Shown: positions 2,953 to 15,244 of the stretch, piece after piece | Layout of the letters: each line of letters opens with the position of its first letter | Position numbering within the stretch: the stretch's first letter is position 1 | The notes under the pieces: model-generated | What the model was told of the DNA's origin: nothing | The model's input: the letters and a program-made list of their open reading frames with translations, nothing else | Databases searched by the model: none | NCBI GenBank assembly: GCA_965198225.1 | Contig: CBDAOY010000006.1 | Location: 928,001-992,000 of the forward strand | Source: Terriglobia bacterium | GTDB lineage: Bacteria; Acidobacteriota; Terriglobia; 20CM-2-55-15 | Direction: 5' to 3' | DNA: 64,000 nt | Position numbers and translations under genes: made by a program

Positions 2953-4701
2953 TCAGGGTTCGGGTTCCGTTTCCAGGGTCTTGACCACGCACGTGGATGC
3001 GCGGCAGTGATTTGAGTTTTCCGAGCCCAGAGCCTCGAGAAACTCGACGGTCTCGGGGTACTGCATGTTGTGGGCTTTCGGACCGTTCGCCATGTCGGCA
3101 ACCGTGTCCCCGGTATTCCCTTCAACTTCCTGATCCGCACGACCGGCGCCGCCAAAAACCTGGGTTGCTCTGGCCCTGACATCCGCGCCTACGGAGATAA
3201 GGTACAGGATCAGATCCCGTTCGACGGTGAGAGCAGCCCCGTGCAGTGGCGTGTAGCCCTGGTTGTCCCCCAACTTGACGTCCGCGCCGACTTCTTCCAC
3301 GAGGTACTTCACGGCGGCCAGTCGCTGGTTCGGAGCGAAATTGGTCACCTGCGGTTCGTAGCCCCAACCGGCGGCAGCCAGCAGCGGCGCCGCTTCTCGC
3401 TCGGTCGGGATCGTGGGATTTGCTCCCGCTCCGACCAGCAGTTTCATCGCAGGGACATCGTTCGCCTTCGCGGCGAGCCAGAAGGCAGTCGCGCCTTCCG
3501 GTCGGATCCAGTCGCCGTGGTTCGTCCTGTAGTGGGGCTTCTTTTCCAGTCTTTGGTCGGGATCGGCGCCGGCCTCCAGCAGTGCCTGAAGCAGGTCCAG
3601 GTAGTCGGTTCTCTCCTCTTCGACACTGGGGGCTGGATACCACGTACGCTCGGCCCACCGAGCGTCGATCGTCGCGTACAGCGGAGCGACTCCGTCCTTG
3701 TTCGCAAGATTGGGGTCGGCTCCCTCATCGAGGAGGAAACTGGCGACGTCGAGCCTTCCGTTGATGATGGCGGTGGTCAGGGGGCTCGCGCTATCTGAGG
3801 CTGCCACCACGTTCACATCGGCTCCCGCTGCTACCAATTCCTTGGCGACCTGTAGGCGGCCTTCGCGGGCCGCGAAATGGAGGGCGGCGAGCCCTCCTGA
3901 GGAAGCCTCTGGGCGGTCTTCCTTAACGGCAGCGTTGCCGTCTTCGTCCCGGTATCGGTCCCTCCACCGGATGACGTCGGACAGTTTGGTCAGGACATCG
4001 GGGTCGGCTCCCCCGGCGACGAGTTCCCGGACGACTTCGGAGCGACCCTGGGCCGCGGCAAACATCAGCGCCGTCTGCCCGTTCGTGGTGTCGGCCGCGT
4101 TCACCTCGGCGCCACTCTCGAGCAGAAGCCTGACGGCGTCCGTATTGCCTGAAGCCGCCGAATACATCAGCGGTGTGGTGCCGTTCGCGTCGGCGTCGTT
4201 CGCGCCCGTTCCGGCCTCGAGCAGGATCTCGATGAGGGCCGCATTGCCGTTCTTTGCCGCGAGCAACAGGGGTGTGAGGTCGCCGAGACGAGTCTTGGAG
4301 TCGAGGTTTGCGCCGGCGTCGATCAGCAGCCTTGCGATTTCCGCATCGTCCCGGTACGCCGCCCAGTGCAGCGCCGTGGTGCCGTCGCCCTGCGTTGCGT
4401 CGACGTCCACACTCTGCTCCAGCAGGGATCGAACGGCGTCGATGTCCCCGTGCATGGCCGCGTCGGCCAGGGGCGCGTCCGCAGCGGCGGATGCCAGTGC
4501 ACCGCTGACGCCGAACAGAATGGCGATGCACGATCCGACGATCAGGGAAGCGAAACTTGGGGCTCGAGTGTAGGTGCGCTCTATGAGCGCACGTTGTTTC
4601 GCTTCGCGGGATGTGCGGTCATAGACCGCACCTACACGGCGTGGGGGGACCGGACCAGCTGTCTTTCTCCCGGAACTTACGCAAAGCGATTGGTGGATCA
4701 A
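2953..4701 (-). CDS. Exported ankyrin-repeat protein (cassette copy A)
   Basis: Multiple G.T.LH.AA ankyrin repeats; hydrophobic signal segment; C-terminal CRASTC; start uncertain (TTG 4701 with GGAG upstream). Confidence 0.88.
   Translation of the reverse strand: MIHQSLCVSSGRKTAGPVPPRRVGAVYDRTSREAKQRALIERTYTRAPSFASLIVGSCIAILFGVSGALASAAADAPLADAAMHGDIDAVRSLLEQSVDVDATQGDGTTALHWAAYRDDAEIARLLIDAGANLDSKTRLGDLTPLLLAAKNGNAALIEILLEAGTGANDADANGTTPLMYSAASGNTDAVRLLLESGAEVNAADTTNGQTALMFAAAQGRSEVVRELVAGGADPDVLTKLSDVIRWRDRYRDEDGNAAVKEDRPEASSGGLAALHFAAREGRLQVAKELVAAGADVNVVAASDSASPLTTAIINGRLDVASFLLDEGADPNLANKDGVAPLYATIDARWAERTWYPAPSVEEERTDYLDLLQALLEAGADPDQRLEKKPHYRTNHGDWIRPEGATAFWLAAKANDVPAMKLLVGAGANPTIPTEREAAPLLAAAGWGYEPQVTNFAPNQRLAAVKYLVEEVGADVKLGDNQGYTPLHGAALTVERDLILYLISVGADVRARATQVFGGAGRADQEVEGNTGDTVADMANGPKAHNMQYPETVEFLEALGSENSNHCRASTCVVKTLETEPEP
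4568..4637. repeat. REPIN (two inverted GTAG-type REPs) inside the 5' end of ankyrin gene A
   Basis: GTGTAG-GTGCGCTCtatGAGCGCAC + 20-bp spacer + GTGCGGTCataGACCGCAC-CTACAC. Confidence 0.85.
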
Positions 4702-4721
4702 CGCTCCATCTCCGGTTGTGA

Positions 4722-4840
4722 GGGGGACGGTGGGCCCGACGCTAATGGATGGTTCCGGTCATAGACCGCACCTACACGCCGTGGGGGGACGTTGGGCCCG
4801 ACGCCAATTTGATGGTTCCGGTCATAGACCGCACCTACAC
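4722..4840. repeat. Tandem ~63-bp repeat, each unit carrying a partial REP
   Basis: Two units gggggacg(g/t)tgggcccgacgc..gatggttccggtcatagaccgcacctacac. Confidence 0.8.
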
Positions 4841-4872
4841 TTTTGACGAACATGTTTTGCTCTCTCAGAAGC

Positions 4873-6243
4873 TCAGATCGAGAAAGTTCCCGTGCTGTCG
4901 CCGAAAGTTTCGACATCCACTCCGAGGGAATGGAGTACCGACAGCAGAGCGTTGGCCTGCGGGGTGTCGTCTGCGGCCCGCACGTGCAGGTTACCCCGCA
5001 CCCGACCGGATGCGTGACCCGCCAGTAGCACCGGTACCCGCTTGTGTCCGTGGATGTTGCCGTCGCCCATCGGGCTGCCGTAAAGAACCAGGGAGTGGTC
5101 CAGCAGGTTGCCGTCTCCATCAGGGGTATTCCGCAACTTATCGAGGAAATATGTCAGAACACCCACGTGGTAGTGGTTGATCTTGGCGAAGTCTTCGATC
5201 ATTTCGGGCCGCTGCTGATGGTGCGACGCCGAGTGGAACGCTGTATCGCTGCCGCTGGTCGGGAAGGTCCTCGGGCTGACGTCGCGGCACATCTTCAGTG
5301 TGGAAACGCGGGTCACGTTCGCCGCGAAAGCCAGAACCTGCAGGTCGAACATGATCTTGACGTGCTCTTCCCAGGAATCGGGCACCCCCGCTGGAGCGTC
5401 TGGCAGTTCTCTCTGGGCGCCCGAGGCGTTGTATTCCTCGATCCTCTGGATGCGACGTTCAATCTCCCGAACGTTCTCCAGGTAGTCGTCCAACCGGTTG
5501 CGGTCCGCGGTTCCTATACCGGCCCGCAGCCGCGCGACGGAACTCGTGATCCGGTCGAGGATGCTGCGGTCGACCTCGCGCCTCGAAGCGCGCTCGTCGG
5601 GAGTACCGCCCGTGCCGAACAACTCTTCGAAAGCCAGGCGCGGGTCCTGGATCATCGGAAGCGGACTGGTCGGAGATGCCCAGCTGAGCGTATCCATGTA
5701 GACGCAACTGTAGTGATAGCCGCAGGCACCGGACGTGTCCTGGTTCTCGATGCTGAGCTGGATCGACGGCAGCGGCGTGTCCTGGCCGAAATTCTGGGCG
5801 TACAGCTGGTCGACGGACGTCCCGTTGTAGACGTCGGAACCTTCGGTCTGCTTGGGATGAGAGGCGGTCAAGAACACCGCGCTCGAACGGAAGTGGTCGG
5901 CACCGACTTCTTCTGCCGTCAGGGGATCCGCCTGGCCGCAGTCGGTGTGGCTGATGATCGTCGTGTAGTCGCGGAACGGTTCCATCGGTTCAAGGATCTG
6001 GGTGAACTCGAAATCGCGACCTTCGGTTCCGGGAGCCCAGAGGTTCTTCTCGGTGCCATACGTCGTGCTGCCCGAGTTGCCGTGGACGATCTCGACCCCG
6101 GCGAAGCGAGGGCGCGGCGTGGCCGCGGTCTGCTCGAGTGGGGTCTGGGCGGGGGCCATGGATTCCAGGAAGGGCAGTGCCACCGCCGCTCCCGTACCTT
6201 GGAGCATCGTTCTTCGTGAAATATGCTTCTTAGTGATGAACAT
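4873..6243 (-). CDS. DUF1552 domain protein (Tat-exported; cassette copy A)
   Basis: SRRTMLQG Tat-like motif, ALPFLESM, SVDQLYAQ, LDDYLENVREIERRI, DGNLLDHSLVLYGS; typical DUF1552. Confidence 0.85.
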   Translation of the reverse strand: MFITKKHISRRTMLQGTGAAVALPFLESMAPAQTPLEQTAATPRPRFAGVEIVHGNSGSTTYGTEKNLWAPGTEGRDFEFTQILEPMEPFRDYTTIISHTDCGQADPLTAEEVGADHFRSSAVFLTASHPKQTEGSDVYNGTSVDQLYAQNFGQDTPLPSIQLSIENQDTSGACGYHYSCVYMDTLSWASPTSPLPMIQDPRLAFEELFGTGGTPDERASRREVDRSILDRITSSVARLRAGIGTADRNRLDDYLENVREIERRIQRIEEYNASGAQRELPDAPAGVPDSWEEHVKIMFDLQVLAFAANVTRVSTLKMCRDVSPRTFPTSGSDTAFHSASHHQQRPEMIEDFAKINHYHVGVLTYFLDKLRNTPDGDGNLLDHSLVLYGSPMGDGNIHGHKRVPVLLAGHASGRVRGNLHVRAADDTPQANALLSVLHSLGVDVETFGDSTGTFSI

Positions 6244-6303
6244 AGATCCGCCTCTCCTTTTGGTCCAATAACCTCTGAAGCTCTATTGATTCGATACTTT
6301 ACC

Positions 6304-8718
6304 CTATTCGGGCGCCGCTTCCGAGCCTGAAGTCGGGCTTTCTTGGCGCATCTGGAACGGCGCACTCGTGACGATGTTCATGACAAACGCCGAAAAACGG
6401 TTGTCAGCGCCCTCCGAGGCGCGTGCGATCGAGCGCACCGTCGGCATATCCCGGTGGTCCAACACCCGGCCGACGGCATAGGCCAGCAGGTTCTGCGTGA
6501 AGCTCCCAAGAAAGGTCACTGAACGGTTGAGGAGCGCCTGGCTCAGGCTACGGGCCCCCTCAAGCTTCGTTCCGTCGTACATCTCGGAAACCGGATCGAT
6601 CGGAAAGCCTCCTTCCGTGACGCGCCGACGCCCGATCGCATCGAAGTTCTCGAGTGTCAGGCCGAGCGGATCCATGATCTGGTGGCAGGCGTTGCACGCC
6701 GGGTTTTGTCGATGCTCGATCATCCGATCCCGGACCGTCAGCACCGCCTCGTTGTTGACGCTCTCCTTGAACGGTGGCACGACCGGGGGAGGCAGCGGGG
6801 GAGGCGAGCCGACCAGGACTTCCAGAACGTACTTTCCGCGCGCCACCGGGGACGTCCGGTTCGACAGGGAGGTGACGGTCAGGACGGCACCCTTGCCCAG
6901 CAACCCGAACCGATCCGGGTCGTCGAGCGTTACACGACGAAACGCGGTCCCCACTATGTTCGGGATGTCGTAGTGGGTGGCGAGCGCGCCGTCGACGTGG
7001 GTGTAGTCTGCCGTGAGCAAGTCCAATACGTTTCGATCCTCGCGCACGATCGTGTCAAAGAGAAGCTCGACCTCACGCCTCATCGACCGCGCCAGGTTCT
7101 TCGTGAAGTTGGGAAACAGAGTGCCCTCGGGATGGGCTTCTTCGATGCCCGTCAGCCGAAGCCACTGCATGGCGAAGTTCGTCGCCAGTGTTTCCGAGCG
7201 GGGGTCCGCCAGCATCCGTTCCACCTGCTCCCGGAGGATTCCTTCTTCCCGAAGCCTGCCATCATTTGCGACGGCCATCAGCTCGTCGTCCGGTGCCGTG
7301 CTCCAGAGGAAGTAGGACAGTCGGGAAGCCAGCTCGAGGTCGGTGATGCGGTAGCTTTCGCCGGGCCCGATACCGCCGGGCGCGCTTTCGAACCGGAACA
7401 CGAATTCCGGCATGGCGATCAGCGTCTGTATGGCCGTCCGGATCCCTGTTTCGAAATCACCCTTCGAGCGGCCCAGCTCATACATCAGCAGCAACCCTTC
7501 AAGATCCTCGGGGGTGGTCGGTCTCCGGAACGCCTTGCCGGCCAGTTGCGTGATGATGTCCCTTGCGCAGGGTTCTTCTTCAGTCGGACCGGAGGGGTAG
7601 CACGAAAAGATCTTGCGGCGGCTGGGTGTCTCGGACATTCCGGTGACTTCGAGCGGTCCGGTGATGGTGAAAGTCCTCAAGTGAGGCGGTAGTGAAGTCC
7701 CGGAGTTCCGACCATAGTCGAGATCCACGAGCGTCTGCTCCGTGACCCGATACTGGTCCTCGCCGGGACCTTCGTACTTCGACACGAACGCAGCCGAGAC
7801 CCGTCGCGGCCCGGCTTTGATTTCGATCGGATCGGTCACCATGACGCCGTCACCGAGCTCGTTCATCAGTGGGTCAATGGTGAACACCGCGACACGCTCT
7901 CCGTCGATCGAGATCTCGAGTTCCTGATACTGCAACGATTCCGGGAGCTCCCGTCCGATGAGGTCCCCCGTGTCGACATACCAGAGTTGCATCCGGAAGG
8001 TGTAGGTGCCGTCGGCCGGGAAGTTGTGAATGACGGAGAGCCCCCCACGGGTCCCGAACGGCGTCCCCTCGACATGCCGCATCTGGTTGACGACCTTCGG
8101 CACGTCGTATTGCTTGATAGCGACGACTGCGTCGGGATCGCCGATGGCGAGGCGCGCGATCGCATCGGCCGCGCGGACGTAGGCCTGCATGAGTGCCGGC
8201 GTGACCGTCAGGGCTTCGGCCATGTTGTCGAAACCGCCCGTTCGGCCGTCGGGGGGGAGCAGGGAAGCAACCTCTACATCGATGCCCAGAAGGTCGTGGA
8301 TCGAGTTGCGGTATTCCTTGCGGTTGACGCGGTGGAGGTCGGGCGCGCTGACGTTGGGGCTGTCGGCCGCTGCCTGATCGATGCGGGTTTCCAGGGCCGC
8401 CGCCAGAGCCTGCAGCGCATCGTCATCCGGCCGGGACGCACCGGCGGGAGGCATCATGCCGGCCCGCAGTTTCCGGATGATTTCTTCAGCCTGCGCGGCG
8501 TTCCGCTCGGGGTGCGCCACATTCACTTCAGACCACGAGAAACCGCCCTCTCTCAGGCTGTCGTCGTGGCAGTAGGCACAGTAGTCGTTCACCAGCGCGC
8601 GTTGGGCACCCACCGCCGCCGGATCCTCGGCGCTCTCCTGGGCGTAGGCGTAGCCAGGTCCCAGGATCAGGGAGGCGAGGAGGATGATCAGGCTGCTGCG
8701 AACCGAGGTTGTTCTCAT
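6304..8718 (-). CDS. DUF1592/1587/1595/1588/1585 planctomycete-type cytochrome c protein (copy A)
   Basis: CAYCH and CNACH heme motifs, KLRAGMMPP, ELASRLSYFLWS, TSPVARGKYVL. Confidence 0.87.
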   Translation of the reverse strand: MRTTSVRSSLIILLASLILGPGYAYAQESAEDPAAVGAQRALVNDYCAYCHDDSLREGGFSWSEVNVAHPERNAAQAEEIIRKLRAGMMPPAGASRPDDDALQALAAALETRIDQAAADSPNVSAPDLHRVNRKEYRNSIHDLLGIDVEVASLLPPDGRTGGFDNMAEALTVTPALMQAYVRAADAIARLAIGDPDAVVAIKQYDVPKVVNQMRHVEGTPFGTRGGLSVIHNFPADGTYTFRMQLWYVDTGDLIGRELPESLQYQELEISIDGERVAVFTIDPLMNELGDGVMVTDPIEIKAGPRRVSAAFVSKYEGPGEDQYRVTEQTLVDLDYGRNSGTSLPPHLRTFTITGPLEVTGMSETPSRRKIFSCYPSGPTEEEPCARDIITQLAGKAFRRPTTPEDLEGLLLMYELGRSKGDFETGIRTAIQTLIAMPEFVFRFESAPGGIGPGESYRITDLELASRLSYFLWSTAPDDELMAVANDGRLREEGILREQVERMLADPRSETLATNFAMQWLRLTGIEEAHPEGTLFPNFTKNLARSMRREVELLFDTIVREDRNVLDLLTADYTHVDGALATHYDIPNIVGTAFRRVTLDDPDRFGLLGKGAVLTVTSLSNRTSPVARGKYVLEVLVGSPPPLPPPVVPPFKESVNNEAVLTVRDRMIEHRQNPACNACHQIMDPLGLTLENFDAIGRRRVTEGGFPIDPVSEMYDGTKLEGARSLSQALLNRSVTFLGSFTQNLLAYAVGRVLDHRDMPTVRSIARASEGADNRFSAFVMNIVTSAPFQMRQESPTSGSEAAPE

Positions 8719-8721
8719 CTT

Positions 8722-8868
8722 GTCAATTTTTGGTTTCGAATCTCCAATGGCTAATCTGCGCTGTGGGTTTTCAAATAGGCAACTTGTGCCGAAGCGTCAT
8801 TGCAGATTTGACTATCGAAAAATCCACATTTGAAATTCGAGACTGGAAATTCGAAATCTCGTATTTTT
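8722..8868. repeat. AT-rich degenerate heptamer array (GAAATTC/GAAATCT)
   Basis: ttgaaattcgagactggaaattcgaaatctcg, gaatctccaat; similar to 9650-9722. Confidence 0.5.
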
Positions 8869-8932
8869 TTGGCGATCTTCGAGGTCCGATTGTAAATCAC
8901 CTCTGGAAATAACGGAAATTGCGGCGAAAGGA

Positions 8933-9493
8933 TCAGGGAAGCAGAACGTCAATCTGGAGGCGGCATTCGGGTAACAGCTGCGGCGCGATGAAATCACCGC
9001 GGTGAAACTGACGGACGAGACGATAGGAATTGTCACCAAGATCGGAGTATGCGAACAGGCAATCGTTTTTGACATCCGCAACCCAGTACTCCGGGATTCC
9101 CGTTTCCGCGTAGAGACGCTTTTTCACGGTCCGATCGTATTCAAGTGAGGACTCGGCGATTTCGACGACCAGGAGGATGTCCGGCGGGCCCGGATGCGCG
9201 GAAGCATAAAAATCCTCTCTCGGCCGGAGCAACACGATGTCGGGCTGAGGTTCGTCATACTCATCCAGACGGACAGCGCCCTGCACACGCACGATCGCAC
9301 TGTCGCCCGTGATGTTCACGATGGCCCGGGTCGCACGATCCACCGCGGCACAATGGGGCGGCCCGATCGGGCTCATGGCGAGGATCTCCCCCCGGATGAG
9401 CTCCACGCGATCTTCTTTCGACAAGATGCCGGCCTCGCCCATGCGATGGTAATCGTGAACCGTGAAAAGCCTTCTTGTGAGTTCGACAGGCAT
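8933..9493 (-). CDS. Uma2/DUF820 family putative restriction endonuclease
   Basis: DRVELIRGEI..MSPIGPPH, EPQPDIVLL, LLVVEIA, K..LYA..GIPEYWV. Confidence 0.9.
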   Translation of the reverse strand: MPVELTRRLFTVHDYHRMGEAGILSKEDRVELIRGEILAMSPIGPPHCAAVDRATRAIVNITGDSAIVRVQGAVRLDEYDEPQPDIVLLRPREDFYASAHPGPPDILLVVEIAESSLEYDRTVKKRLYAETGIPEYWVADVKNDCLFAYSDLGDNSYRLVRQFHRGDFIAPQLLPECRLQIDVLLP

Positions 9494-9649
9494 AAACGCA
9501 CTGCCAGAATAGCGCAGATCCGTCGCCAAGGCTAAGTCACTGATTTGGTGTGACTCGTCGCAGGGAATGATCCCTTTTCCTGCGACAAGGCGACTGTTAA
9601 TCCGGAGGGGGTGCGATCTGCATCAAGGAAGGGGAGGGGTGGCCTGACA

Positions 9650-9722
9650 TTCGAAATTCGAAATCTCAAATCCCTTCGGACAATTTCAAATCTCGAATCT
9701 CCAATTGAACAATCTCCAATCT
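9650..9722. repeat. Heptamer tandem array (xAATCTC/GAAATTC)
   Basis: gaaattc gaaatct caaatcc ... caatttc aaatctc gaatctc caattgaa caatctc caatctt. Confidence 0.6.
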
Positions 9723-11381
9723 TCAGGGTCCGCCCTGAGTCCTTACTACACACGTGGAGGCCCGACAGTTGTCCGAGTTCTCCGAGCCCAGGGCCTCGAG
9801 AAAACCGACAGTCTCGGGATACTGCATGTTGTGCGCTCTCGGGCCGTTTGCCATGTCGGCGACGGTGTCCCCGGTTTCCTCCTCAACATCCAGGTCGCTG
9901 CGACCGGCGCCGCCGAAGACACTGCTGGCCCGGGCTTTGACGTCCGCACCCATGGCCATCAGATAGAGGATCACATCGTGGTCGATGGTGAGCGCGGCGC
10001 CATGCAGTGGTGTGTAGCCTTGATTGTCTCCCAGATTGGGATCCCCGCCGATTTCCTCCACGAGGTACTTCACGGCAGCCAACCGCTTGCCTGGCGCGAA
10101 GGCGGTGACCTGCGGTTCAAAGCCGAAACCCGCGGCGACCAACAGAGGCGTCGCTCCCCGCTTCGACGGGATGGTCGGATTGGCGCCGGCGGCGATCAGA
10201 AGCTTCATCGCAGGGACATCATTGGCTTTAGCAGCGAGCCAGAACGGGGTAGCGCCCGGCGGTCTTGCCCAGTCTCCATGTTCGGTGCGGTACCACGGTT
10301 TGTTGATCAGTCTCTGGTTGGGATTGGCTCCCGCCTCCAGGAGTGCACTCACCAGATCGAGATAGTTGGTCGCTTCCTGGTCGATGGTCGGGGCGGGATA
10401 CCATGTGCGCTCGGCCCATTGCGCGTCGATCGTCGCATACAGTGCCGCCTGGCCGTCGACGTTTGGCAGGTTGGGATTGGCGCCGGCTTCGAGGAGGAAG
10501 CTGCCGATGTCGAGGTGCCCGTTGGCGATGGCCGATGTCAGGACGCTCGTTCGATCCGCGACCGACACCTGGTCGATGTCGGCTTCGGCCTCCACCAGCT
10601 CTCGTACGGCGTCCATGTGACCCTGTCGCGCCGCAAAGTGCAGAGCGGTCATGCCCCCCATGGGTATTTCGTCGTGGTCCTCCTTGACAAGGATCCGGCC
10701 GTCCTCGGAGCGGTACCTGTCGTCCGACTTGATGACCTTGGTCACTCGCGTCACCGCGTCCAGGTCGGCGCCGCCCGCAGCGAGCGCCCGGATGACTTGC
10801 GCTCGACCCTGCGACGAGGCGAACATCAACGCTGTCTGCTCGTTAGTCGTGTCTTTGGCGTTCGCGTCCGCACCGCGATCGAGCAATACCCCCACAGCCT
10901 CCGGCTTGCCCGCGGCCGCGGCGTACATCAGCGTCGTCGTGCCGTTGGCGTCGGCGTAAGCCGGGTCGGTCCCGGCTTCCAGCAGAAGCGTGATCATGGC
11001 CGTGTTACCGTTCTTGGCGGCCATCACGATTGGAATGAGATCGCCCACACGGGTCGTGGCATCCACGTCTGCTCCCGCTTCGACCAGCAGGGTCGCCAGC
11101 TCCAGGTCGTCCCGGTATGCGGCCCAGTGCAGTGCGGTCGTGCCGTCGCCCTGGGGAGCGTTGACATCGGCCTGCTGATCGAGCAAGGTCCGCACGGACT
11201 CGGCATCGCCGTGCATGGCCGCATCCGCGATCGGCGAATCCACGGCGGAGGCCGACGCCAGGGTGGCCGCGAACAGAAAGACTAATCCGACAAAGGTGTA
11301 GGTGCGCTCTATAAGCGCACGTTGTTTCGTTTCGCGGGATGTGCGGTCATAGACCGCACCTACACGGCCTTCGCGTTTCAT
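9723..11381 (-). CDS. Exported ankyrin-repeat protein (cassette copy B)
   Basis: Ankyrin repeats; paralog of 2953..4701; ATG overlaps the upstream stop (ATGA). Confidence 0.9.
   Translation of the reverse strand: MKREGRVGAVYDRTSRETKQRALIERTYTFVGLVFLFAATLASASAVDSPIADAAMHGDAESVRTLLDQQADVNAPQGDGTTALHWAAYRDDLELATLLVEAGADVDATTRVGDLIPIVMAAKNGNTAMITLLLEAGTDPAYADANGTTTLMYAAAAGKPEAVGVLLDRGADANAKDTTNEQTALMFASSQGRAQVIRALAAGGADLDAVTRVTKVIKSDDRYRSEDGRILVKEDHDEIPMGGMTALHFAARQGHMDAVRELVEAEADIDQVSVADRTSVLTSAIANGHLDIGSFLLEAGANPNLPNVDGQAALYATIDAQWAERTWYPAPTIDQEATNYLDLVSALLEAGANPNQRLINKPWYRTEHGDWARPPGATPFWLAAKANDVPAMKLLIAAGANPTIPSKRGATPLLVAAGFGFEPQVTAFAPGKRLAAVKYLVEEIGGDPNLGDNQGYTPLHGAALTIDHDVILYLMAMGADVKARASSVFGGAGRSDLDVEEETGDTVADMANGPRAHNMQYPETVGFLEALGSENSDNCRASTCVVRTQGGP
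11296..11365. repeat. REPIN in-frame within the N-terminus of ankyrin gene B
   Basis: Differs from 4568-4637 at two positions; encodes VGAVYDRTSRETKQRALIERTYT. Confidence 0.88.
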
Positions 11382-12748
11382 ATCGAAAAAACTCCCGTGC
11401 TGTCGCCGAAGATTTCGTCACGCACGCCCAGCTTGTGCAGAACCGTCAGCAGGGCATTCGCCTGCGGGGTGTCGTCCCGAGCCCGGACGTGCAGGTTGCC
11501 CTGCACCCGACCTGATGCGTGACCGGCCAGGACAAAAGGAACCCGCTTGTGGCCGTGGACGTTGCTGTCGCCCATGGGGCTGCCGTAGAGGATCAGCGAG
11601 TGGTCCAGCAGGTTTCCGTCACCGTCTGGCGTGTTCCGCAGCCTGTCGAGGAAGTGGGTCAGCACATCGATGTGATGCCGGTTGATCAGGGCAAAGTCCT
11701 CGATCTGCTCCGGATCCTGCCGGTGATGCGACGCCGAGTGGAACGGCGCGCTCGTGCCGCTGTCCGGGTAGGTCCGCTGGCTCGTGTCGCGCCCCAGTTT
11801 CAGCGAAGCCGCTCGTGTCACGTCCACCGAAAAGGCTACTACCTGAAGGTCAAACATGAGTTTGACGTGGTCTTCCCATGAGTCGGGGACACCGACGGGA
11901 GCATTCGGCAGTTCTCGCTGGACGCCCGACGCGTTGTAGGCCTCGATTCTCTGGATGCGTCTCTCGATCTCCCGAACGTTGTCGAGATAGTCGTTCAGTC
12001 GATTGCGATCCACTGGATCCAACTCGTTCCGCACCCGGGCCACGGAGTTTGCGATGCGATCGAGGATGCTGCGATTGACCTCACGCCGCGCCGCCCGTTC
12101 CTCCGGAGAGCCGCCCGAGCCGAAGAGTTGTTCGAAAGCCAGGCGCGGGTCCGGGGTCATCGGCAGGGGAGTCGTGGGTGATGACCAGCTAAGCGTTTCC
12201 ATGTAGACGCAACTGTAGTGGTAGCCGCAGGCCCCGGTGGTTTCCTGGTTCTCGATGCTGAGCTGGATCGACGGTACGGGAGTGTCCTGGCCGAACCTCT
12301 GCGCATAGAGCTGGTCTACCGATGTCCCGCAGTAGACGTCGGAGCCCTCGGTCTGCTTGGGATGACCGGCAGTCAGGAAGACGGCACTGGAGCGGAAGTG
12401 GTCGGCTCCGACCTCCTCCGGTGTCAGGGGGTCCGCCTGGGCGCAGTCCGTGTTGCTGATGACGGTCGTGTAGTCTCGGAACGGCTCCAGGGGCTCGAGG
12501 ATCTTGCTCAATTCGAAATCCCGGCCCTCTTTCTCCGGAGCCCACAGGTGTTTCTCGGTCCCGTACATCGTGCTGCCCGCCGAGCCGTGAACGATCTCGA
12601 TGCCGGCAAAGCGCGGGCGCGGTGCGGCTGCCGTCTGCCGGATCGGGGTCTGGGCCGGAACCATGGATTCCAGAAAAGGCAGCGCGACGGCCGCTCCCAT
12701 GCCTCGAAGAACAGTTCGTCTTGAAATGTGTTTCTTTGTGATGAACAT
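11378..12748 (-). CDS. DUF1552 domain protein (copy B)
   Basis: Close paralog of 4873..6243; MFITKKHISRRTVL start preceded by AGGAG. Confidence 0.85.
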   Translation of the reverse strand: MFITKKHISRRTVLRGMGAAVALPFLESMVPAQTPIRQTAAAPRPRFAGIEIVHGSAGSTMYGTEKHLWAPEKEGRDFELSKILEPLEPFRDYTTVISNTDCAQADPLTPEEVGADHFRSSAVFLTAGHPKQTEGSDVYCGTSVDQLYAQRFGQDTPVPSIQLSIENQETTGACGYHYSCVYMETLSWSSPTTPLPMTPDPRLAFEQLFGSGGSPEERAARREVNRSILDRIANSVARVRNELDPVDRNRLNDYLDNVREIERRIQRIEAYNASGVQRELPNAPVGVPDSWEDHVKLMFDLQVVAFSVDVTRAASLKLGRDTSQRTYPDSGTSAPFHSASHHRQDPEQIEDFALINRHHIDVLTHFLDRLRNTPDGDGNLLDHSLILYGSPMGDSNVHGHKRVPFVLAGHASGRVQGNLHVRARDDTPQANALLTVLHKLGVRDEIFGDSTGVFSI

Positions 12749-12802
12749 GGATCCGACTCTCCTTTTCTTCCCCAAAGCTCAGGAAACTCGCGAAGCTCGA
12801 TC

Positions 12803-15244
12803 CTACTTGCCGGCCTCCGTGGACGCCTGTCTGAATTGTCGCATCTGGAACGGGGCGCTCTTCACGACATTCATGATGAATGCCGAGAAAAGGTCCCCGT
12901 CATCGGCTGCCGCCCGTACGATTGTGCGAACCGTGGGCATATCCCTGTGATCCAACACCCTGCCGAGAGCGTACGCCAGCAGGTTTTGAGCAAAGCTGCC
13001 CAGAAACGCATCGGAACGCTTTACGATTGCCTGCCGCAGGCTGTTCGGTCCGTCCAGCTTCGTTCCGTCGTACATCTCGGCGGCCGGATCGATCAGGGAA
13101 CCTCCGTCGTTGGGACGCCAACGCCCGACCGCGTCGAAATTCTCCATCGTCAGTCCGATCGGGTCCATGATCTGGTGGCAGGCGTTGCATACGGGGTTTT
13201 CCCGATGCTCCATCATGCGCTCGCGCACCGTCGACACCACATCGTTGTCGCCCGCTTCCTTGAAGGGCGGTACGACCGGAGGAGGCAGTGGTGGAGGCGA
13301 TCCGACCAGGACTTCCAGTACGTACTTGCCGCGTGAGACGGGCGACGTGCGGTTCGCTTGCGAAGTCACGGTCAATACGGCGCCTTTTCCCAGCAGTCCG
13401 AAACGGTTCGGATCGTCGAGCACAACACGGCGGAATCGGTTTCCGAGGATGTTTGGAATTCCGTAATGCCTGGCCAGTGCCTCGTCGACGAACGTGTAAT
13501 CTGCCGTAAGCAAATCGAGAACGCTTCGATCCTCGCGAACGATGCTGTCGAAGAGCAACTCGACTTCACGCTGCATCGACCGTCCCAGATTGCTCGTGTA
13601 CTCGGGGAACAGGACGCCCTCCGGGTGCACGTCATGCATGCCTGTCAGGCGCAGCCATTGCATTGCGAAGTTCGTCGCAAGCGTCTCCGACCGTGGTCCA
13701 CCGAGCATGCGCCGGACCTGCTGTTCGAGGACACCCTCTTCACGCAGTCGACCCTGGTTCGCGATCTCGATGAGTTCGGCGTCGGGCGCCGAGCTCCATA
13801 GGAAGTAGGACAACCGCGAAGCGAGCTCGAGGTCGCTGACCCGGTAGCTTTCTCCAGGCCCGATGCCGGCGGGAACGCGCTCGAATCGGAATACGAAGTC
13901 CGGCATTGCGATCAGCGTCTGCACCGCGGTTCGGATTCCATTCTCGAAATCGCCCTTCGAGCGGCCCAGTTCGTACATCTGCAGCAGCCCTTCGAGGTCT
14001 TCCGGAGTGGCCGGTCTTCGGAATGCCCGGGTCGCCAGATCCGTGATGATGTTCTGCGCGCAGGCTGCCTCTTCGCTCGCATCGTTCGGATAGCAGCTGA
14101 AGATCTTGCGGCGGCTGGCGGTTTCGGACACGCCGGTGACTTTCAAAGGACCCGTGACCGTCATGGTTCTCACGTGAGGCAGCATCGTATTCGGGCTGAT
14201 CAGGCCCCAATCGACATTCACCAGCGTCTGTTCCCACAGCACGAACTGGTCCTCGACGGGACCTTCGAATTTCGAGGGGAAAGCAGCCGCAACTCGGTGT
14301 GCCCCCGCTTTGACCGGAACCGGTCCGGTGTCCATGATCCCGTCCCCGAGTTCGTCAAACAGCGGATGGATAGTGAACAGACCGACCCGCTCGCCGTCAA
14401 CGGAAACCTCGAGCTGCTGGCCCTGCAACGATTCCGGAAGATCCCTGCCGACAAGCTCCCCCATCGTGACGTACCAGAGTTGTATGTGGAAGGAGTACTC
14501 GCCGTCGGCCGGAAAGTTGTGAATGACGGACGTTCCACCGCGGGTTCCGAACGGCGCACCCTCGATGTGCCGCATCTGGTTGACGACTTTTGGGACGTCG
14601 TACTGCGTCATGATCGGGCCGGCTTCGGGGTCGCCGACCGCCAGACGTGCGATCGTCTCGGCGGCTCGAACATAGGCCTGCATGAGGCCCGGCGTGACCG
14701 TCAGAGCTTCAGACATGTTGTCGAAACCGCCGGTCTTGGAGTCGGGCGGCAGCAGCGTCGAAGCGTCAACGTCCACGCCAAGAAGGTCGCGGATCGAGTT
14801 GCGGTATTCCTTGCGGTTGACGCGGTGGAGATCGGGTGCATCGACATGGGGGCTGGCGGCAACACTCTGATCGATTCGGTCGGCCAATACATCGGCCAAT
14901 GCTTCGAGTGCCTCCTCATCCGGGCGCGGCGCACCGAAAGGAGGCATCATGCCGGCTTTCAGTTTGCGTATGATTTTTTCAGCCTGCTCAGCGTTCTGCG
15001 CCGGGTGTGCCACATCGACTTCCGACCAGGAAAAGCCGCCCTCGATCAAAGCATCGTTGTGACAGTAGGCACAGTATTCGTTCACGAGTGCCCGCTGCGA
15101 CTCTACATCGGATGGATCGTTGCTCGCCTGGCCGTAAGCCGGCGTAACCAAATCGGGGGTGCCGAGCCCCACGGCCATGAAACCGGACAGGACCAGCCAT
15201 CTATACACTGACATTATTCCCATGAAAGCCTTTGTTCTTACCAA
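12803..15244 (-). CDS. DUF1592-family planctomycete-type cytochrome c protein (copy B)
   Basis: CAYCH, CNACH; paralog of 6304..8718; start uncertain. Confidence 0.85.
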   Translation of the reverse strand: MVRTKAFMGIMSVYRWLVLSGFMAVGLGTPDLVTPAYGQASNDPSDVESQRALVNEYCAYCHNDALIEGGFSWSEVDVAHPAQNAEQAEKIIRKLKAGMMPPFGAPRPDEEALEALADVLADRIDQSVAASPHVDAPDLHRVNRKEYRNSIRDLLGVDVDASTLLPPDSKTGGFDNMSEALTVTPGLMQAYVRAAETIARLAVGDPEAGPIMTQYDVPKVVNQMRHIEGAPFGTRGGTSVIHNFPADGEYSFHIQLWYVTMGELVGRDLPESLQGQQLEVSVDGERVGLFTIHPLFDELGDGIMDTGPVPVKAGAHRVAAAFPSKFEGPVEDQFVLWEQTLVNVDWGLISPNTMLPHVRTMTVTGPLKVTGVSETASRRKIFSCYPNDASEEAACAQNIITDLATRAFRRPATPEDLEGLLQMYELGRSKGDFENGIRTAVQTLIAMPDFVFRFERVPAGIGPGESYRVSDLELASRLSYFLWSSAPDAELIEIANQGRLREEGVLEQQVRRMLGGPRSETLATNFAMQWLRLTGMHDVHPEGVLFPEYTSNLGRSMQREVELLFDSIVREDRSVLDLLTADYTFVDEALARHYGIPNILGNRFRRVVLDDPNRFGLLGKGAVLTVTSQANRTSPVSRGKYVLEVLVGSPPPLPPPVVPPFKEAGDNDVVSTVRERMMEHRENPVCNACHQIMDPIGLTMENFDAVGRWRPNDGGSLIDPAAEMYDGTKLDGPNSLRQAIVKRSDAFLGSFAQNLLAYALGRVLDHRDMPTVRTIVRAAADDGDLFSAFIMNVVKSAPFQMRQFRQASTEAGK

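Follow-up and report, generated by a model that had tools for sequence, protein, structure and literature searches.

Can a palindromic repeat be translated as part of a signal peptide? The question is raised by the junction between a DUF1552 (HXXSHH) gene and an ankyrin-repeat gene, ank1, in a 64,000-nt stretch of contig CBDAOY010000006.1 (positions 928,001-992,000; assembly GCA_965198225.1). We refer to this stretch as the window, to its host genome as G000, and use window coordinates throughout. A REP doublet (REPIN) lies at the 5′ end of ank1, and an initial annotation proposed that it is read as the n-region of a signal peptide, in which it would be tolerated or co-opted. A doublet is also found at a second DUF1552-ankyrin pair in the window, and the features of both loci are collected in Table 1.

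Table 1. Features of the two DUF1552-ankyrin loci, in window coordinates.
Feature	Coordinates	Strand	Basis or remark
Ankyrin gene 2 (ank2), open frame from TTG 4701	2953..4701	-	GGAG 8 nt upstream; putative translation
REP doublet, 2 differences from ank1 copy	4570..4635	-	5′ of ank2, in frame with ORF 2953-4701
Relic of ancestral ank2 start	4698..4853	-	Alignment to G002/G003 orthologues; translation
DUF1552 gene 2	4873..6243	-	Tail GDSTGTFSI-stop
Ankyrin-repeat gene 1 (ank1), 552 codons	9723..11381	-	ORF; orthologues 77% identity in G002/G003
Signal peptide, 46 codons, putative	11244..11381	-	Translation and alignment to orthologue signal peptides
REP doublet (REPIN), 66 nt from GTAGG to CCTAC	11298..11363	-	11296-11365 with GT/AC ends
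ATG, only canonical start of ank1, putative	11379..11381	-	Overlaps DUF1552 stop (ATGA)
DUF1552 (HXXSHH) gene 1	11378..12775	-	ORF; Pfam PF07586, E 1e-82; tail GDSTGVFSI-stop, last codons ATA TGA

The REP doublet is in frame with ank1 and its putative signal peptide

The minus strand reads ...TTT TCG ATA TGA at the 3′ end of DUF1552 gene 1, and the overlap of ATG 11381 with the DUF1552 stop, reported in the initial annotation, can be read from it directly. A GGGAG motif lies 10 nt 5′ of this ATG. The N-terminus of the 552-residue product consists of MKREGR, VGAVYDRTSRETKQRALIERTYT, FVGLVFLFAATLASASA and VDSP..., and its leader is laid out as MKREGR, 23 repeat-encoded residues, the h-region FVGLVFLFAATL and the c-region ASASA. 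By eye, and in alignment with the leaders of the orthologues, this corresponds to the Sec (SPase I) pattern of a positive n-region, a hydrophobic h-region of 10-15 residues and small residues at -3 and -1. Cleavage is predicted by eye to fall before VDSP, where an A occupies both -3 and -1 (A-S-A, then V). The n-region is unusually long, at 29 residues, and contains 8 K/R against 4 D/E. The repeat peptide had been called Arg-rich, and it does contain 5 K/R in 23 residues, with a net charge of +2 when the 22-residue element is scored.

The element is in frame, contains no stop and passes into the host reading frame at either end; of three frames per strand a single one is stop-free, in agreement with the earlier claim of a frame that avoids the REP's own TAG. 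A scan for ATG, GTG and TTG found no in-frame start inside the element, between the element and the h-region (as had been stated), or in the 12 codons that separate the upstream in-frame stop from ATG 11381. The 552-codon frame is unbroken and has a GC3 of 0.78 on the 3′ side of the repeat. The doublet comprises a left REP (11341-11363), a 20-nt spacer (11321-11340) and a right REP (11298-11320). Its inverted repeat has 25-nt arms (11296-11320 and 11341-11365) that are 88% complementary and 20 nt apart. A length of 70 bp had been given for the element, which is correct with the GT/AC ends included; the core is 66 nt, or 22 codons. No Rfam family was found in 4300-11700, and no sense-strand terminator or promoter-like site at the ank1 or ank2 locus, terminator-like matches being antisense only.

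The insertion is specific to this lineage

We aligned ten orthologues from six genomes, six of ank1 (G002, G003, G012, G020, G017 and G007) and four of ank2 (G002, G003, G012 and G020). All ten lack the repeat, begin with MF(G/R)K or MLGK followed by an h-region, and have an SD-like GGAG or GAGG 6-9 nt 5′ of the start. The ank1 h- and c-regions on the 3′ side of the repeat align with the signal peptides of these orthologues. We also scanned metagenomes and obtained 79 loci, with identities of up to 76% and none nearer than G002 and G003; the 17 that were inspected have MF(G/R)K followed by an h-region and zero REP cores. Some metagenome alignments seemed to extend over part of the repeat peptide (query residues 4-16), but these proved spurious. 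Since the repeat is absent from all orthologues compared and from the 17 inspected metagenome relatives, the insertion is lineage-specific. The initial annotation had anticipated a clean indel of about 69 nt in such an alignment. The repeat is indeed missing from 10/10 orthologues, but the indel is not clean in the DNA, where ancestral intergenic sequence and the first codons have been replaced as well. Judged from these alignments, the insertion replaced the ancestral ribosome-binding site and start of ank1.

The same junction could in principle be produced by a mis-join or collapse during assembly, via a 38-nt stretch over the left REP arm that is identical at both ankyrin loci. Short-read contigs do end exactly at the repeat, as an artefact of this kind would have it. 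We nevertheless regard it as extremely improbable: the assembly is in 9 contigs only, despite more than 800 REPs, and both DUF1552-ankyrin pairs match G002 and G003 in gene order, strand and spacing. Contigs from sequencing runs of three other studies (X4, X7 and X9) carry the junction of DUF1552 tail, ATGA and REP with no differences. An RNA-library run (X15) contains identical pieces of ank1 (11088-11254 and 9944-10096) and a piece at 4880-5071, none of which bridges the repeat and which may reflect DNA carry-over.

The doublet belongs to an abundant REP family

The host genome holds 794 GTAGGTGCG cores. Searches with the REP 23-mer gave 891 copies at up to 3 mismatches and 839 at up to 2, while a reversed-pattern control gave 0 matches. 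The REP consensus is GTGTAGGTGCG[G/C]TCTATGA[C/G]CGCACA, in which a G..C / C..G pair is compensatory and the GTAG tag stands at one end. There are 313 convergent REP pairs, for which the commonest spacing from GTAGG to CCTAC is 66 nt (153/313), and the doublet spacers are very diverse. Against the 839 copies of the host genome, the closest complete relatives, G002 and G003, have 1 copy each.

A search for the RAYT family PF01797 gave no match at E<=0.001 in the host assembly, which is 97% complete. It does contain two identical RAYT fragments, which cover only positions 68-146 of NF047646 and score 38.9-39.3 bits (cut-off 80); no REP lies within 1.5 kb of the fragment L063. In the sister species G001 there is a RAYT of full length (110 bits), and three REPs lie at distances of 73-160 nt from it. 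The REP population of the host genome may perhaps no longer be mobile.

Translation through the repeat at ank1

Our preferred reading, to which we assign a probability of about 0.65 on sequence evidence, is that the inserted ank1 repeat is translated, tolerated, and lost when the signal peptide is cleaved. A GTAG-type REP doublet would have landed in, or been copied into, the 5′ end of ank1 after the split from the REP-free sister species, taking out the ancestral ribosome-binding site and MFGK start. ATG 11381 would now serve as the start of the gene, and because it overlaps the DUF1552 stop, ribosomes that terminate on DUF1552 would probably restart there. Using the single frame without stops, translation would cross the repeat and produce the 29-residue n-region, followed by the intact hydrophobic core and the ASA cleavage site. 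The 46-residue leader would be wholly removed during export, which would leave the mature protein unchanged, so the insertion would be tolerated. We infer the use of this start codon, the coupling, the export and the cleavage. The proposal that the repeat is tolerated within a cleavable signal peptide is supported, by comparison, by its absence from orthologues, its one open frame, the intact h- and c-regions, and two further unrelated genes described below.

Several features count against this reading. The distance of 10 nt from GGGAG to ATG is long, and neither the ancestral SD nor the ancestral start has survived. The RNA of 11270-11420 (151 nt) has a predicted folding energy of -55.1 kcal/mol (z -3.84), and a hairpin of this predicted stability near the ATG should hinder initiation. 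The TGA lies 12 nt 5′ of the REP, and ATG 11381 lies 17 nt 5′ of it; the predicted hairpin starts about 8-17 nt past the ATG, and its stem reaches into the flanks. Given a very stable predicted hairpin at this distance, an influence on ank1 initiation is plausible. As for the start itself, selection of ATT->ATA and Thr->Val changes in the DUF1552 tail, which created the ATG and the GGGAG, was a weak candidate. The 20 DUF1552 tails of the host genome show no constraint on this residue; 3 of them have ATA as their final codon, and 2 contain ATATGA.

Initiation might instead occur downstream at a non-canonical codon, for example an ATA in the right REP arm, giving (M)ERTYTFVGL..., or a CTG in the h-region, with the repeat serving as a 5′ leader. 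The ATA at 11309-11307 would give a short n-region of conventional length, and the cited sections of Di Nocera et al. 2013 (PMC3733652) caution that a large number of N-terminal 'intragenic' REPs are in fact extragenic. No purine-rich SD precedes the ATA or the CTG, however, the site is buried in the predicted hairpin, and a canonical in-frame ATG is at hand. ATA and CTG starts are, moreover, very rare in bacteria, and we consider a downstream start very improbable.

A REP cluster puts the ancestral start of ank2 out of frame

The initial annotation described the same REPIN in frame in the paralogue, at 4568-4637. Its frame relative to the ankyrin ORF is indeed the same, but it is not simply part of a signal peptide, because the ancestral ATG 4853 is out of frame. 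This ATG (MFVK, behind GAGAG) has been retained and was thrown out of frame by a REP cluster of about 290 nt. It opens a 51-codon frame that runs through two REP singlets (about 4819-4840 and 4756-4777) and ends at TGA 4700-4698, overlapping TTG 4701 as TTGA. TTG 4701 is the only start able to feed the ankyrin frame of ank2. From the sequence, ank2 would be either broken or dependent on reinitiation at TTG 4701. With its ancestral ATG out of frame, ank2 is not a second clean example, and it may represent the failure mode of REP insertion. That a REP insertion can disconnect a start at such a locus also counts against our preferred reading of ank1.

The ank1 and ank2 doublets differ at 2/66 positions. 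One of these, CTC against CTT, had been described as synonymous yet palindrome-breaking. It is synonymous, and it lowers arm complementarity from 92% to 88%; in the RNA, however, its sole effect is a U-G wobble in place of a C-G pair, and the position stays paired in the fold.

The same layout recurs in other exported genes

We scanned the host genome for REP doublets that lie just 5′ of an h-region in a long, high-GC3 frame. Where no start lies between repeat and h-region (n=5), the repeat is open in frame in 4/5 cases and blocked in 1/5, the blocked case being a further point against our preferred reading. Where a start does intervene (n=14), 4/14 are open, about the third expected by chance. 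The enrichment gives a binomial p of 0.045 and a Fisher p of 0.07, on few cases of which ank1 and ank2 are not independent. In the blocked case (C6:431708-431774), the REP's own AGGTG-N6-ATG is the sole start before a lipoprotein-like leader; the corresponding G002 and G003 proteins are only 36-41% identical, too distant for a comparison of N-termini.

Two of the open cases are unrelated, single-copy-like genes with the layout of ank1. One, P0003, encodes an exported MBL-fold hydrolase and starts at an ATG 7 nt from AAAGGAG; the other, P0004, encodes an SsuA-like lipoprotein and starts at a TTG 5 nt from GGGAGG, a start common to its G012 orthologue. Orthologues lack the repeat in 4/4 and 7/7 cases, respectively. 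The repeat peptide had 3 weak matches in G001 and G012, and the one with long open frames (G001:C31) lies 5′ of a dehydrogenase gene in a different frame, so it does not represent an in-frame case. No convincing internal, non-leader doublet was found in frame: doublets flanked on each side by more than 100 open codons had non-coding-like GC3 on one of the sides (judged by eye, without a gene caller).

These genes bear on whether ank1 was recently disabled, the repeat having destroyed the ribosome-binding site and start, the upstream ATG being coincidental, and little or no protein being made. The lost SD and MFGK start, the stable predicted hairpin that adjoins the ATG, the chance ATATGA in 2/20 DUF1552 tails and the ank2 start put out of frame by REPs would all fit such a loss. 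About 50 ankyrin-family matches (51) occur in the host genome, so the loss of one copy may cost little. We judge a disabled ank1 to be unlikely, as the repeat occupies the only one of three frames that is open, and no stop separates it from an ATG on one side or from intact h- and c-regions on the other; the 552-codon frame is intact with coding-like GC3; P0003 and P0004 combine the same layout with strong starts; and open frames are enriched where no alternative start exists.

A contrasting reading is that the repeat has been co-opted. Its hairpin would set the DUF1552:ankyrin ratio, by termination-dependent initiation or stalled DUF1552 termination, or its peptide would be a functional extended n-region. 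The position of the REP relative to the TGA and ATG, with the predicted stem extending into the flanks, would suit the former, as would the overlap of the ank1 and P0004 starts with the end of the upstream gene (2/3 clean cases). Liang, Rudd and Deutscher reportedly found in 2015 that REPs close to stop codons affect translation in E. coli. On the side of the peptide, the ank1 and ank2 spacers read SRETKQR and SREAKQR, against the family consensus FFEPKRC, and rank near the hydrophilic extreme of the 157 copies in the same orientation (fractions 0.01 and 0.02); all 4/4 open cases share the orientation in which the peptide tends to be net positive. Against this, no orthologue or paralogue requires the element, P0003 is uncoupled and the P0004 spacer keeps a hydrophobic FF. 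The orientation bias rests on about 3 independent events, which is too few, and the two hydrophilic spacers, being in related copies, count as one shared event. Co-option is improbable on this evidence, and the initial annotation's suggestions of co-opted Arg-rich peptides and of a hairpin modulating coupled translation find no support past geometry.

It is a doubtful extension of these results that n-regions form a systematic safe harbour for coding REP doublets in this lineage, that the harbour may shape the element, and that REPs repeatedly provide exported genes with new 5′ ends and are not only passengers. The basis for this idea is the orientation shared by 4/4 cases, the shift of the ankyrin spacer from FFEPKRC to SRETKQR, the most hydrophilic and most basic variant of the genome, and the REP-supplied start at C6:431708-431774.

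Relation to known systems and implications

Intragenic ('codogenic') GTAG and CGTC REPs, including those of the PVC group and deep-branching phyla, were surveyed by Di Nocera, De Gregorio and Rocco in 2013. According to the cited sections, codogenic GTAG REP dimers encode 20-30 residues in frame, and many are N-terminal and missing from shorter homologues (PMC3733652). The ank1 element resembles them in each of these respects. The N-terminal cases are mostly taken there as misannotation, and a link to signal peptides is absent from the cited sections (PMC3733652), whereas ank1 has no downstream start and the element falls exactly in the n-region of three exported proteins. Our literature search for REPs in frame within signal peptides found none on topic.

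Ogata et al. are said to have described in 2000 Rickettsia palindromic elements (RPE) in frame within proteins. RPEs are selfish palindromic repeats tolerated in proteins, and N-terminal RPE-1-tagged proteins are reportedly expressed in vivo, according to the cited parts of PMC3733652 and PMC2229807. As described there, the ank1 element is like an RPE in being a selfish, in-frame and tolerated palindrome. RPEs differ in belonging to another family (longer, some of CGTC type), in their obligate intracellular host and in lying mostly at the surface of the mature protein, whereas the ank1 peptide would be cut off. A Yersinia YPAL/RU-2 MITE fused to YPO1552 (Delihas) is another small mobile repeat in a predicted signal peptide, part of which it supplies (PMC2229807, cited section). 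In that putative new protein, the repeat peptide is hydrophobic and makes up some of the signal core, whereas in ank1 a hydrophilic peptide only lengthens the n-region of a signal peptide that is old and conserved. The REPIN-RAYT system, as outlined in the cited part of Bertels and Rainey 2011 (PMC3116915), consists of inverted REP doublets, present by the hundred, that fold into a long hairpin. The host genome likewise has hairpin doublets in the hundreds, and in G001 a RAYT is flanked by the same REPs; it differs in showing only two identical, truncated RAYT relics and very diverse spacers. Sec signal peptides of autotransporters still work with an N-terminal extension of about 25 residues, the ESPR. 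The ESPR is a conserved, presumably functional motif, whereas the ank1 extension is repeat-derived and lineage-specific.

Intragenic REPs (Di Nocera 2013, PMC3733652) and a MITE-derived signal peptide (Delihas, PMC2229807) are already in print, as the cited sections set out; ank1 is a clear example of a known phenomenon and involves no new mechanism. Its interest lies partly in the missing downstream start, since N-terminal 'intragenic' REPs were put down to misannotation. Genes of this kind are prone to being shortened or wrongly labelled during annotation, by gene callers and signal-peptide predictors alike. Together the four genes form a natural series of gene starts, in which ank1 would be rescued by an overlapping start, the ank2 start is stranded, and two genes carry the repeat after an unchanged start. 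Such a series bears on the limits of Sec, that is, on how much extra structured sequence an n-region may carry.

The 5' end of ank1

The first ankyrin gene (ank1) would begin at an ATG that overlaps the stop codon of the preceding DUF1552 gene 1, and its codons 1-46 read MKREGR, VGAVYDRTSRETKQRALIERTYT and FVGLVFLFAATLASASA, followed by VDSPIADAAM. The VGAVYDRTSRETKQRALIERTYT block is the product of an inverted repeat. The initial annotation described a 70-bp element; the repeat is real, with a core of 66 nt (22 codons) that reaches 70 nt only when its GT/AC ends are included. In each REP, TAG closes one frame and the TGA of CTATGA closes a second, leaving one open frame per strand, and the ank1 reading frame is the sole stop-free frame of its strand through the element. 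From the element as far as the hydrophobic stretch this frame has no ATG, GTG or TTG, and the 12 codons from the upstream in-frame stop to ATG 11381 contain none either. Sequence and ORF reading confirm the layout as first described, with an ATGA overlap, a repeat read in frame and no later start.

Features of the ank1 locus and of related elements in the same genome (bare coordinates refer to the window; C6, C7 and C8 are contigs)
Feature	Position	Strand	Evidence or remark
DUF1552 gene 1, ORF	11378-12775	-	Pfam HXXSHH, E 1e-82; 3' end ...TTT TCG ATA TGA
ank1 start ATG	11381-11379	-	overlaps DUF1552 stop as ATGA
ank1, ankyrin-repeat ORF, 552 codons	11381 to 9723	-	ORF and domain reading
Inverted-repeat arms in ank1	11296-11320 and 11341-11365		25 nt each, 88% complementary, 20 nt apart
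ank2 doublet	4570-4635
P0003, MBL-fold protein, doublet	C8:581360-581425		AAAGGAG-7 nt-ATG; MNRSRERD + repeat + TQLTTLCLVFVLAPSVVLG
P0004, SsuA-like lipoprotein, doublet	C7:529272-529337		GGGAGG-5 nt-TTG; MRHRS + repeat + ...ALLVLFLILLSC
RAYT fragments, 201-codon frame	C6:1056743-1057348 and C8:596434-596646 (locus L063 1333-1938)		NF047646 positions 68-146, 38.9 bits; N-terminal HUH half missing

The repeat family

The window's own genome (G000, 6.4 Mb) contains 794 GTAGGTGCG cores and 891 copies of the 23-mer GTAGGTGCG[G/C]TCT[A/G]TGA[G/C]CGCAC at three or fewer mismatches; a reversed-pattern control gave zero matches. There are 313 convergent REP pairs, and the commonest spacing (n = 153) is exactly 66 nt from GTAGG to CCTAC. 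The ank1 unit belongs to this genuine repeat family and has the structure that defines a GTAG REP doublet. At two or fewer mismatches the family is patchy among relatives, with 839 copies in G000, 185 in the sister species G001 (same genus), 74 in G012 and one each in G002 and G003. In G001 a RAYT gene (110 bits to NF047646) is flanked by these REPs, three of which lie 73-160 nt away. The RAYT-like matches in G000 are two identical fragments only, both matching the RAYT model in its C-terminal half; an intact RAYT was not found in this 97%-complete assembly with more than 800 REPs, and no REPs lie within 1.5 kb of the one fragment examined.

Other repeats were also seen. Window positions 4698-4853 hold variant REP singlets (GTAGGTGCGGTCTATGACCGGAAC..., 11 copies genome-wide) inside a 63-nt direct repeat that also bears GTCCCCCCACG(G/C)CGT; unlike plain REPs, they look as if they belong to a larger, composite repeat. 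In G012, more than 100 near-identical 180-nt fragments (e.g. C7:1187058-1187237) match the C-terminal half of an IS200-like Y1 transposase model. All share the same internal TGA and TAG, and the set resembles a high-copy derivative that arose from a piece of a transposase gene.

Comparison with relatives

Among 40 related genomes searched, clear ank1 orthologues were found, and their order relative to the paralogue is conserved. We read the 5' ends of six orthologues of ank1 (G002, G003, G012, G020, G017 and G007) and four of the paralogue, ank2 (G002, G003, G012 and G020). All ten begin MFGK, MFRK or MLGK and pass directly into the hydrophobic core, with a GGAG/GAGG-like site 6-9 nt 5' of the ATG and a start 14 to ~150 nt past the DUF1552 stop; none of these 5' ends has a REP. 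The 17 inspected metagenome relatives (of 79 returned; best 76% identity) have ordinary leaders free of REP cores, and the other parsable DUF1552 genes of G000 (20 tails in all) also have an SD and ATG 15-40 nt downstream. Because all of these have ordinary leaders, the ank1 repeat is, on this comparison, a lineage-specific insertion. A clean indel had been anticipated. The repeat is indeed missing from relatives, but ank1 has also lost its ancestral ribosome-binding site and first codons, together with the old intergenic DNA.

The surrounding genes are arranged as a tandem pair of DUF1592/PSD - DUF1552 - secreted ankyrin triplets (window 2953-15244). This three-gene module is massively expanded in G000, where DUF1552 tails number at least 20 and the ankyrin protein has 51 matches.

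The paralogue ank2

The ank2 doublet differs from that of ank1 at 2 of 66 positions and is its nearest relative among the 313 doublets, the next nearest standing at 4-5 differences; the two also have a 5-nt left flank, GCCGT, in common. For these reasons one probably arose from the other by copying or conversion, and separate insertion is disfavoured. The differences are a spacer A/G (Thr/Ala) and CTT/CTC. The second is synonymous, as the initial annotation stated; in RNA it makes a C-G pair U-G, which is still paired in the predicted fold.

The repeat had also been reported in frame in ank2. The frame matches, but ank2 is not a clean signal-peptide example. Alignment with G002 and G003 shows that the ancestral start persists at 4853 (GAGAG-6 nt-ATG TTC GTC AAA, MFVK), directly past the DUF1552-2 stop. 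It is followed by ~290 nt comprising two REP singlets, unique DNA and the doublet, and only thereafter does ank2 resume. The frame from ATG 4853 reads MFVKSVGAVYDRNHQ... and ends after 51 codons at TGA 4700-4698. The ankyrin frame can be entered only at TTG 4701, in a TTGA overlap with this stop and with GGAG 8 nt upstream. With this arrangement, ank2 is either a 5'-disrupted gene or one dependent on termination-reinitiation at TTG 4701.

Probable translation through the repeat

In its only open frame, the ank1 repeat links a canonical ATG to an h/c-region that can still be aligned with the signal peptides of orthologues, and the frame past it is intact, with a GC3 of 0.78. We scanned all 313 doublets and the singlets of G000 (578 elements) for recurrence. 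A hydrophobic core follows directly, in frame and without an intervening start, at four doublets: those of ank1, ank2 and two unrelated genes for exported proteins, P0003 and P0004. Orthologues of P0003 (G001, G002, G003 and G012) have MFRFR... or MMRCR... starts and lack the repeat. The P0004 TTG overlaps the end of a permease gene and also opens the repeat-free G012 orthologue (MLHRVLSKAARS...); all seven P0004 orthologues are without the repeat. Blocked frames were then included by counting doublets just 5' of an h-region with a long high-GC3 frame. Where a start codon lies between doublet and h-region, 4 of 14 are open in frame, about the third expected by chance; where none does, 4 of 5 are open (binomial p 0.045, Fisher p 0.07), these being few cases of which ank1 and ank2 are not independent. 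The ank1 junction is unchanged in contigs from three other studies (runs X4, X7 and X9), and synteny with G002 and G003 argues against a mis-join. With a probability of roughly 0.65, we read the ank1 repeat as a tolerated insertion that would be translated and removed with the signal peptide.

Contigs of metatranscriptome run X15 (labelled sponge metagenome) are identical to window 4880-5071, 9944-10096 and 11088-11254. Before the P0003 SD (C8:581450-581560, locus L046), GTCACTT-like and AGTAGTC/AGTAATC-like short tandem heptamers fill a spacer whose orthologous counterparts lack them.

Initiation at ank1

The ank1 GGGAG sits 10 nt from the ATG, which counts against use of this start. The surrounding 151 nt have a predicted fold of -55.1 kcal/mol (z -3.84), with a stem that extends into the flanks and starts ~8 nt past the ATG. 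Because this predicted stable stem is so close, independent initiation should be poor. The likelier route to ank1 would be for ribosomes that finish at the overlapping TGA to start again. DUF1552 gene 1 ends in GDSTGVFSI* (...GGA GTT TTT TCG ATA TGA) as against the conserved GDSTGTFSI* (...ATT/ATC TGA). The idea that this tail was remodelled to create GGGAG and ATG is weakened, since the residue varies freely across the 20 tails of G000. Of the 20, 3 have ATA as their final codon and 2 contain ATATGA; the ank1 ATG may already have been present before the insertion.

Tolerance or co-option

The initial annotation proposed that such elements are tolerated or co-opted. Comparison with orthologues free of the repeat favours tolerance, the default reading of the ank1 element because no relative needs it. 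The n-region of signal peptides is known to be forgiving, and a repeat-bearing one would be removed together with the remainder of the leader. That the element does more, and has been co-opted, is hinted at by several features, none strong. All four cases share the orientation whose open frame encodes VGAVYDR...ALIERTY, for which net charge is at least +1 in 82 of 157 copies; the opposite orientation is net negative in 81 of 129. The ank1 and ank2 spacers (SRETKQR and SREAKQR, versus the consensus FFEPKRC) rank near the hydrophilic extreme of the 157 copies in that orientation (fractions 0.01 and 0.02), and in two of three clean cases the start overlaps the end of the upstream gene. However, P0004 keeps the hydrophobic FF spacer with a net charge of 0, P0003 lacks coupling to its upstream gene, and independent events number only about three.

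In E. coli, a REP close to a stop codon reportedly lowers gene output (Liang, Rudd and Deutscher 2015); by analogy, the REP 12 nt from the stop might lower that of DUF1552. Elsewhere in G000, a 67-nt doublet (C6:431708-431774, locus L149 209-275) lies directly 5' of a lipoprotein-like leader (NWFRRFRITLILLAC) in a 248-codon ORF, for which a close orthologue for comparison was not found. Because a TAG belonging to the REP itself closes this frame, and the sole starts are a GTG and an ATG in the left REP arm (AGGTG-6 nt-ATG), this REP may supply both ribosome-binding site and start.

Relation to known insertions

GTAG and CGTC REPs within genes are the subject of Di Nocera, De Gregorio and Rocco 2013 (PMC3733652); dimers encode 20-30 residues, and many are N-terminal. 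The authors warn that translation may start downstream, which would make most N-terminal cases extragenic, and they mention expression of Rickettsia N-termini tagged by RPE-1. A Yersinia MITE forms part of a predicted signal peptide, according to Delihas (PMC2229807). The open literature searched does not seem to state explicitly that REP doublets and n-regions are linked. Since intragenic REPs and a MITE-derived signal peptide are already described, the ank1 case is of a known kind and adds to the in-gene REP insertions.
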